Virus record (IMG/VR): IMGVR_UViG_2541047875_000010
Span: 1 to 33,904 of that record
DNA: 33,904 bases
Origin: a virus
Lineage: Duplodnaviria; Heunggongvirae; Uroviricota; Caudoviricetes
Reading direction: 5' to 3' (one strand)
Shown here piece after piece: positions 1-680 of this stretch. Made by a program: the position numbers and the translations under genes. Below the pieces are notes generated by a model. That model saw only the letters and a list, made by a program, of their open reading frames with translations, searched no databases and was not told the DNA's origin. The stretch's first letter is position 1, and the number at the start of each line of letters is the position of its first letter.

Positions 1-420
1 ATGACGGATTATCAGCCATACAGGAAAGGAACTGTGCTTGCCCCAACTGGGCCATGCAATCATCTTCATGTGATTTGTAATGATCCTGTTTATTACCCCG
101 TTAACGATTGTTATTGTGTTTTAGTTGTTAATATTTCTAGTATCAAGGATGGTGTCCCCCACGATCCGTCTTGCGTCTTGAATTCTGGTGATCATCGCTT
201 TATCAAGCATCCAAGTTATGTTGTTTACGCTGAAGCTATAATTTGGCGAGTGGATAACATGGTTAGAAAGCAGCGATCGGGTGAGATTTCTGTTCATGAT
301 GATATGCCAGAAGCTACATTCAATAGAATTCTGGACGGTTTTGATATCTCTGATGAAGTTACGCCAAAGAACCTTAAATTTAAAAATAAATATTGCGTAT
401 CATCTATTGATGATGAGTAA
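1..420 (+). CDS. hypothetical protein (AT-rich moron; may be truncated by window edge)
   Basis: 139-aa ORF starting at an ATG at position 1; noticeably AT-rich versus flanking phage genes; no family recognised from the translation; convergent with the early-left operon. Confidence 0.4.
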   Translation: MTDYQPYRKGTVLAPTGPCNHLHVICNDPVYYPVNDCYCVLVVNISSIKDGVPHDPSCVLNSGDHRFIKHPSYVVYAEAIIWRVDNMVRKQRSGEISVHDDMPEATFNRILDGFDISDEVTPKNLKFKNKYCVSSIDDE

Positions 421-459
421 ACAACAGGAATTGTTTCGGTATAACTTCTGGAGTTTTCT

Positions 460-633
460 ATGGAAGATCAAAAAGCAACCAAGCCACAGGTTAAGTTCGA
501 CACAATGAAAGCATTCGCAGGTATGGGTGCTGCTGTTGAAGTTCTGATGAAGGCTGCTCCTAATGCGTTCACTCACGCTACTGTCTCTGGTAAAGAGCAG
601 CAGGGTAAGCTTCGTCGTCTCAAAGCAGCATGA
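460..633 (+). CDS. small hypothetical protein (57 aa), not in ORF track
   Basis: ATG at 460 preceded by GGAG about 8 nt upstream (ttctGGAGttttctATG); translation MEDQKATKPQVKFDTMKAFAGMGAAVEVLMKAAPNAFTHATVSGKEQQGKLRRLKAA; stop TGA 631-633 followed directly by a strong terminator hairpin. Confidence 0.45.
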   Translation: MEDQKATKPQVKFDTMKAFAGMGAAVEVLMKAAPNAFTHATVSGKEQQGKLRRLKAA

Positions 634-652
634 TCATAGCTGGTGCTTTTTG

Positions 653-680
653 AAAACCCGCCTTCAGGCGGGTTTTTTCT
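653..680. terminator. bidirectional rho-independent terminator
   Basis: AAAA-CCCGCC-ttca-GGCGGG-TTTTTT: 6-bp GC stem, 4-nt loop, flanked by an A-run and a T-run; lies between convergent genes 460-633 (+) and 681-989 (-). Confidence 0.65.

Follow-up and report, generated by a model that had tools for sequence, protein, structure and literature searches.

The left end of the window (the whole 33,904-nt stretch of DNA analysed) carries a short run of rightward genes facing a leftward phage operon. On the plus strand, a complete 139-amino-acid (aa) ORF with an ATG start occupies positions 1–420; as argued below, it is probably panT and would encode the toxin of a type II toxin–antitoxin (TA) pair, PanA/PanT of cluster T6. 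Downstream lies a 57-aa gene with an ATG start (460–633), whose product belongs to PHROG 2741 (E = 5e-35). The plus-strand spacer between them (421–459) contains the ribosome-binding site (RBS) of the 57-aa gene, GGAG at 449–452, 7 nt 5' of its ATG, and, from megablast and alignment, a mosaic junction at ~447. The 2 ORFs are co-oriented, 39 nt apart, have no terminator between them and have one intrinsic terminator in common, at 652–677 on the plus strand. On the minus strand follow genes for a PrtN-type excisionase (681–989; PF11112, E = 4e-23; PHROG annotation 'excisionase') and an Rv2179c-like 3'–5' exonuclease (999–1574; PF16473, E = 6e-75), which begin a lambdoid early-left string. The product of the latter contains an Rv2179c-like 3'–5' exoribonuclease domain and is not a recombination nuclease of the lambda Exo or RecE type; some phage records call the gene 'exodeoxyribonuclease VIII'.

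The initial annotation of this region had described two rightward ORFs, the smaller preceded by an RBS, that converge with a leftward early operon, and in this it was right: both ORFs and the GGAG are present, and the excisionase and exonuclease genes both lie on the minus strand. It had further treated the ORFs as a two-gene module and the 57-aa ORF as an unlisted one. Neither point stands, as a co-oriented 190-aa gene encoding a Panacea domain lies immediately beyond the left edge, its end overlapping the 139-aa ORF by 4 nt (ATGA), and public relatives all annotate the 57-aa coding sequence. The module comprises three co-oriented genes, with the 139-aa ORF second.

The first kilobase shares 99–100% identity with phages Lys8385Vzw and SKA5 and with a prophage of E. 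coli KC-Dl-1, the last being 100% identical to the window. Using positions 1–680 as query, 204 of 5,426 E. coli genomes matched over at least 80% of its length, and among the matches listed at that coverage identity was always at least 97.9%. The low G+C content ascribed to the module as a whole applies to the 139-aa ORF, at 0.386 against 0.522 for the window (only 0.6% of 420-nt segments are equally low), and not to the 57-aa gene, whose value of 0.477 is similar to the 0.484 of the adjoining early-left genes. The difference between 0.386 and 0.522 argues for a foreign origin of the panA–panT (panAT) cargo.

The terminator that closes the panA–panT–57-aa transcript, identified by a terminator scan and by folding both strands, is a G+C-rich hairpin of 11 bp followed on the plus strand by the TTTTTTCTTT T-tract, and on the other strand the leftward excisionase gene stops 4 nt short of it. 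Its folding energy is −19.3 kcal/mol (z = −3.6) on the plus strand and −18.1 kcal/mol on the minus strand, where the sequence 3' of the hairpin is CAAAAAG and just four U, within the stem, are usable; the scan reports a terminator for the plus strand alone. Of the earlier proposal of a bidirectional terminator, the stable hairpin on both strands therefore survives and only half of the bidirectional claim is supported, because a proper U-tract is present on the plus strand alone. The hairpin is conserved by alignment in mEp460, O157 and Salmonella, and an Rfam scan of positions 1–1200 gave only sub-threshold matches, anchored on this hairpin.

A Panacea-domain partner upstream of the 139-aa ORF

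In KC-Dl-1, Lys8385Vzw and SKA5, a 190-aa gene, panA, abuts base 1, and its TGA stop overlaps the first ATG of the window (ATGA, bases 1–4). RefSeq names its product (WP_000458584.1) 'Panacea domain-containing protein', and a Pfam search returned PF13274 SocA_Panacea (E = 2.2e-19; 70.9 bits against a cutoff of 25.7; residues 27–137), that is, a stand-alone Panacea domain with a C-terminal tail of ~50 aa. Since panA lies outside the window, the evidence for the pairing is drawn from relatives that are identical or nearly so, in which an adjacent, co-oriented Panacea (PF13274/DUF4065) gene is found within 100 nt of panT. Leftward extension through these relatives, a check that the initial annotation had called for, proved decisive: it shows the first ORF to be complete, with the Panacea gene upstream and a dusA attL further left. 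That the ORF at 1–420 might be the truncated 3' part of some longer gene was ruled out, since its N terminus is conserved and ATG1 overlaps the upstream stop. The first ten residues (including M1, P6 and G10) are kept across 30 homologues. RefSeq starts panT at GTG34, giving a 128-aa product (WP_014640052.1); conservation of residues 1–11 and the ATGA overlap with panA argue that ATG1, rather than GTG34, is the true start.

The pairing recurs well beyond E. coli. A Panacea gene lies directly 5' of the homologue in Shewanella, Proteus, Vibrio and Pantoea and in Pseudomonas, Klebsiella and Helicobacter phages, with upstream Panacea proteins of 184–194 aa whose genes overlap the toxin gene by 4 nt or are separated from it by 1–10 nt; once the GTDB loci described next are included, the upstream ORFs span 181–195 aa. 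A scan of GTDB with an alignment-based query, at one genome per species, recovered 47 loci (P. moraviensis not among them), and ~42 of the 47 have a PanA-like ORF upstream, the remainder being contig-truncated or spurious; a genome scan with the single toxin sequence of phage Sirocco found no loci. All 23 of the 23 upstream ORFs scanned match PF13274. The neighbourhoods of these homologues are otherwise unrelated, ranging from an AlpA/integrase island and a prophage tail end by Abi_2 to a P2-type repressor and a position after a cI-like repressor, and the 57-aa gene was not found downstream of the 139-aa homologue in any of the 47 GTDB loci or in the other-lineage loci. The large-plus-small pair proposed for the window is thus replaced by another: the 139-aa protein pairs with the product of the 190-aa Panacea gene that precedes it, and the 57-aa gene falls outside the pair.

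Several of these loci merit description in their own right. In Pantoea prophages (L015–L018, 1557–3405), T6 PanAT follows directly on a cI-like repressor, where lambda has rexAB. The Proteus pair (L009–L012, 1–4408) lies at the tail end of a prophage, with Abi_2, a subtilase and an ABC-type ATPase as neighbours. A contig assigned to Gordonia sp. IEGM753 (L046, 944–1899) carries a Pseudomonas-like T6 PanA/PanT pair whose toxin is 48% identical to that of Sirocco, which reflects either assembly contamination or cross-phylum transfer.

PanA/PanT systems, with 88 toxin clusters, were defined by Kurata et al. (2022, PNAS; PMC8832971), who annotated T6 by HHpred as 'EndoA/PemK/MazF-family RNAses'. 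Their Dataset S1 includes T6 rows for Pantoea septica LMG 5345 (−4), Halomonas stevensii S18214 (−4), Yersiniaceae bacterium 2016Iso4 (−1), Salinivibrio socompensis S35 (+1) and Pseudomonas reinekei (−1), as well as Proteus vulgaris, Pluralibacter and others (PMC8832971). For the T6 strains with a spacing given here, we found homologues of the window protein immediately after PanA with identical spacings, P. reinekei being represented by a different strain. The accessions WP_000458584, WP_014640052 and WP_021549909 are absent among the supplement rows listed. The validated T6 pair is that of Pseudomonas moraviensis (PanT WP_083201923.1, PanA WP_083354365.1), in which PanT is toxic, is neutralised by PanA and is pulled down with it, and specifically inhibits protein synthesis; 8 of the PanTs tried in that study were not toxic in E. 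coli (PMC8832971). The N terminus of P. moraviensis PanA, MIFSEQKVAQ, is that of Sirocco PanA save that the first Sirocco codon is GTG, and the window protein is 45–48% identical to the Sirocco toxin, the nearest Pseudomonas sequence compared. Through the shared strains, spacings and PanA N terminus, membership of the 139-aa protein in T6 is strongly, if indirectly, supported. With the Panacea partner and the G+C contrast, this family identity agrees with the initial suggestion of a horizontally acquired cargo of TA type.

Sequence family and predicted fold of the 139-aa protein

A function-less PHROG was the sole family match of the 139-aa protein. Pfam, NCBIfam and PADLOC gave none, returning only sub-threshold noise such as ICMT and DapC for the 139-aa and 57-aa proteins. 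The family is nonetheless large: a word search yielded 62 clusters at 90% identity, and a scan with a family HMM yielded 2,669 clusters (50% identity) at E ≤ 1e-3, 891 of them at E ≤ 1e-10. An AlphaFold2 model built from a 30-sequence alignment (pLDDT 89.3, pTM 0.83) predicts a five-strand barrel followed by helices, and the top ~48 Foldseek matches to it are all MazF, indicating a predicted fold of the MazF/CcdB type. At the sequence level, PemK_toxin (PF02452) is absent among the Pfam matches at E ≤ 1 and NCBIfam is likewise blank; the family profile found no MazF among PDB sequences, and hhalign against MazF gave a probability below 1% with family alignments of both 30 and 143 sequences. 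As these searches were not significant, the MazF link is one of predicted structure.

A wider alignment that took in homologues from Pseudomonas, Klebsiella and Helicobacter phages defines 16 invariant residues (G17, H21, L22, P29, L41, V43, D55, C58, G63, H65, F67, S72, Y76, G94, G113 and S117), and the window copy retains all 16. In a non-significant global hhalign alignment, offered as a lead only, S46/S47 (S/T/C–S/T in the family) fall opposite T52/T53 of MazF and H21–L22 opposite H28–R29, R29 and T52 being the catalytic Arg and Thr of MazF. In E. coli 7_33_46A, an IS903B element has inserted ~141 nt into panT and the remaining prophage is replaced, with panA intact (L005, 3432–5142). This leaves an orphaned antitoxin gene beside a disrupted toxin gene and, as weak evidence, would fit tolerated loss of the toxin.

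The 57-aa gene and a second mobile cassette

The 57-aa protein forms 48 clusters, is always 57 aa long and occurs in Escherichia, Salmonella, Enterobacter, Cronobacter, Atlantibacter, Franconibacter and Hafnia. Its conserved core reads KFDT.KAFAGMGAAVEVLMKAAP.AF and its tail is basic; Pfam, NCBIfam and PADLOC returned no match, and PHROG 2741 is function-less. Its dN/dS is 0.07–0.11 against the Enterobacter and Hafnia copies, and a spurious ORF was ruled out on this ratio of ~0.1. The initial annotation, which tied its proposal to conservation of the small ORF, is borne out on that point, as the gene is conserved under purifying selection.

The ORFs on either side of the spacer have different histories. 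Homology to mEp460, O157:H7 and Salmonella prophages begins at ~447, 13 nt before the 57-aa ATG, and megablast alignments with mEp460 and with many E. coli genomes begin at 447–450; this break places the 139-aa and 57-aa genes in different mosaic segments. The 57-aa region is present in 565 E. coli genomes, of which 204 also match at least 80% of positions 1–680, that is, carry panT. In Salmonella, Enterobacter, Hafnia, mEp460 and O157, a gene for a 177–179-aa GNAT-fold protein, absent from this window, lies 5' of the 57-aa gene at a distance of 140–196 nt. That protein has no Pfam match; its top GNAT-fold matches are N-terminal acetyltransferases, and the toxins TacT and KacT are among the matches. 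In Enterobacter and Hafnia prophages, the GNAT-fold and 57-aa genes are flanked by the Q/DUF968 region on one side and the lysis genes on the other. The 57-aa copy of the window is 96–98% identical to GNAT-linked copies, and among the lineages sampled the gene accompanies 139-aa homologues in E. coli dusA phages only. The simplest reading of these alignments is that panA–panT took the place of a GNAT gene while the 57-aa gene behind it was kept; this 57-aa gene would be resident in the phage lineage and now be co-transcribed with panAT to the terminator.

The GNAT-fold/57-aa spacer contains a perfect, conserved inverted repeat, CCAATCG-ACATGAT-CGATTGG (L003, ~4935–4960; L006, ~3930–3955; L022, ~2915–2940), which may serve as a regulatory hairpin or as an operator; the window lacks it because panAT replaced that segment. 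In Hafnia prophages (L031–L033, ~1000–2110), a gene encoding a RelA_SpoT-domain protein of 319–352 aa lies directly 5' of the GNAT-fold and 57-aa cassette, between Q and holin. This gene is possibly toxSAS/CapRel-like, and the late-promoter moron position here seems to hold several candidate toxic or defence genes in a short row.

The dusA junction and a proposed role for the pair

The prophage sits between zur and dusA. Alignment of attL with attP places the crossover in ATGCTYGAT, within the conserved 'APMLD' codons near the dusA start. On the left side of this point the prophage keeps the host dusA start (MPAESHTVYPAYRFSIAPMLD...), and the phage has a surrogate dusA 5' end beside int. The same integration behaviour has been described for dusA-specific integrases (PMC4482086). 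A host dusA remnant of 26 codons (MPAESHTVYPAYRFSIAPMLDRMYRF*) at the junction points into panA (L004, 4116–4196), whose start lies 235 nt past the remnant's stop and ~250 nt from the crossover, with no terminator predicted between remnant and panA. A sigma-70 scan of positions 1–1100 gave no sites, and the 9/12 site TTGACC-17-TAAACT found 127 nt 5' of panA is of a kind no commoner than chance. In the lysogen, panAT would probably be expressed from the host dusA promoter; we infer this from the arrangement, as promoter-like sites upstream of panA are not above chance.

In the mechanism that we propose, the pair would be cargo of an E. coli prophage of lambdoid type, which inserts itself into the dusA 5' end, and PanA and PanT would be made from a translationally coupled bicistron. 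PanA would silence PanT by direct binding; free PanT, built on a MazF/PemK-like scaffold, would arrest growth and block translation, most probably by cutting RNA. The panA–panT–57-aa operon would run to the terminator at 652–677, co-oriented with the host dusA promoter in the lysogen, and the 57-aa gene would be the kept downstream half of a GNAT-fold plus 57-aa cassette whose first gene was swapped for panAT. For RNase chemistry of PanT, the translation-specific inhibition seen with the T6 representative gives indirect support, and by analogy with the P. moraviensis T6 homologue the E. coli pair may be expected to show toxicity and its neutralisation and binding by PanA. The later NetFlax study found that a Panacea domain on its own is able to neutralise toxins directly, and proposed that the domain acts as a sensor (PMC10440598). 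The likeliest role would be an abortive-infection-type defence of the lysogen or prophage addiction, and a defence or moron role fits the positions of relatives after cI in Pantoea and beside Abi_2 in Proteus.

We thus regard it as highly probable that positions 1–420 of the window are panT of a PanA/PanT TA cargo, with the antitoxin gene panA just to the left and the 57-aa gene outside the pair. The competing view, that the 139-aa and 57-aa proteins are themselves the two partners of a TA or defence pair, draws on their co-orientation, 39-nt spacing and single common terminator, and on the RBS of the 57-aa gene and the purifying selection acting on it. It is nevertheless largely refuted and retains almost no credence: the 139-aa protein already has a universally conserved upstream partner, the 57-aa gene is missing 3' of the 139-aa homologues in the other lineages examined and is preceded by the GNAT-fold gene in the panT-less lineages examined, of the 565 E. 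coli genomes that contain the 57-aa region just 204 match over at least 80% of positions 1–680, and both the homology break at ~447 and the G+C contents of 0.386 and 0.477 separate the two genes. Somewhat less remote, and still quite improbable, is the idea that the 57-aa protein is a portable third component (a regulator, a trigger mimic or an anti-defence factor) for whichever cassette lies upstream, GNAT or PanAT. Its gene has been kept intact with its RBS exactly at the cassette junction, is always 3' of a potentially toxic enzyme gene (the GNAT matches including TacT and KacT) and is under strong purifying selection; simple recombination, however, explains the junction, the 96–98% identity to GNAT-linked copies means that retention may reflect recency only, the protein has no assigned family or fold, and T6 PanAT functions as a two-gene system without it.

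Two further readings leave the panA–panT pairing in place and concern what it does. The pair might be an inert passenger in E. coli, a non-toxic or unexpressed remnant with no role for phage or host, as several PanTs are non-toxic in E. coli (PMC8832971), one genome has IS903B in panT beside an intact panA, and no promoter stands above chance; yet both genes are intact with all invariant residues present, at least 80% of positions 1–680 is matched in 204 of 5,426 E. coli genomes (with at least 97.9% identity among the matches listed), and the pair recurs at classic moron and defence positions, after cI in Pantoea and by Abi_2 in Proteus, so that we consider this improbable. PanT may also differ from MazF in chemistry, since the catalytic Arg of MazF is not evidently conserved and the invariant residues include H21, D55, C58, H65, S72 and Y76. 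That it has the MazF/CcdB fold with a non-MazF activity, either as a CcdB-like gyrase poison or through a new His/Asp/Cys/His active site, is unlikely, with a modest chance of being right. A broader extension of the preferred PanA/PanT reading, rather doubtful at present, would make the dusA-proximal end of these lambdoid prophages a cassette-exchange slot, in which different toxic two-gene modules (PanA/PanT here, GNAT-fold plus 57-aa elsewhere) are exchanged ahead of a kept 57-aa gene and come to lie, on integration, behind the captured host dusA promoter, acting as a lysogeny-specific defence or addiction switch, with the 57-aa protein as a shared accessory factor and the His/Asp/Cys/His site of T6 PanT distinct from that of MazF.

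The prophage pair is a new member of a published family and not a new kind of system, and the advance is incremental. It gives a function to a gene called 'hypothetical protein' in ~200 complete E. coli genomes and in Lys8385Vzw and SKA5, and it corrects the RefSeq start codon of panT. T6 PanAT, whose only validated representative so far is a chromosomal Pseudomonas pair, gains a temperate-coliphage member in a host that allows easy testing of toxicity, RNA targets and phage defence. A second, unannotated mobile cassette, GNAT-fold plus 57-aa, is exposed, exchanging with panAT at the dusA-adjoining slot. The case also illustrates how a window truncated at its edge can point to the wrong gene pairing.

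Set against known systems, the E. coli pair most resembles T6 PanAT: the antitoxin comes first, as a stand-alone Panacea protein of ~185–190 aa without an N-terminal domain, with a −4/−1 overlap and the PanA N-terminal motif (M)F.E.KVAQMAAYLL, and the toxin of ~130–140 aa has no CDD or Pfam match and a MazF/PemK-like predicted structure. Unlike the chromosomal P. moraviensis pair, it is carried by a phage, lies at an attL junction and has an unrelated 57-aa gene behind it in the same transcript. MazF, PemK and Kid (PF02452) are paired with MazE or PemI, and PanT differs from them in showing no detectable sequence homology, in a very short beta1–beta2 loop and an extra C-terminal helix (122–131), in its invariant residues (H21, D55, C58 and H65) and in an antitoxin that is a Panacea protein rather than an AbrB or RHH protein. 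In TacAT, AtaRT and KacAT, an upstream RHH antitoxin gene (~90 aa) overlaps or abuts the GNAT toxin gene, whereas the 57-aa gene lies downstream and encodes no recognisable domain; GNAT is, moreover, a ubiquitous fold. No PADLOC-DB v2.0.0 model matched PanT, the 57-aa protein, PanA or the GNAT-fold protein at E ≤ 1, and panAT, PADLOC-negative, has no homology to the rexAB-type morons of lambda. It is like them in layout, as a small, AT-rich, self-contained operon set against a neighbouring phage operon, at a prophage end here and by cI in relatives.
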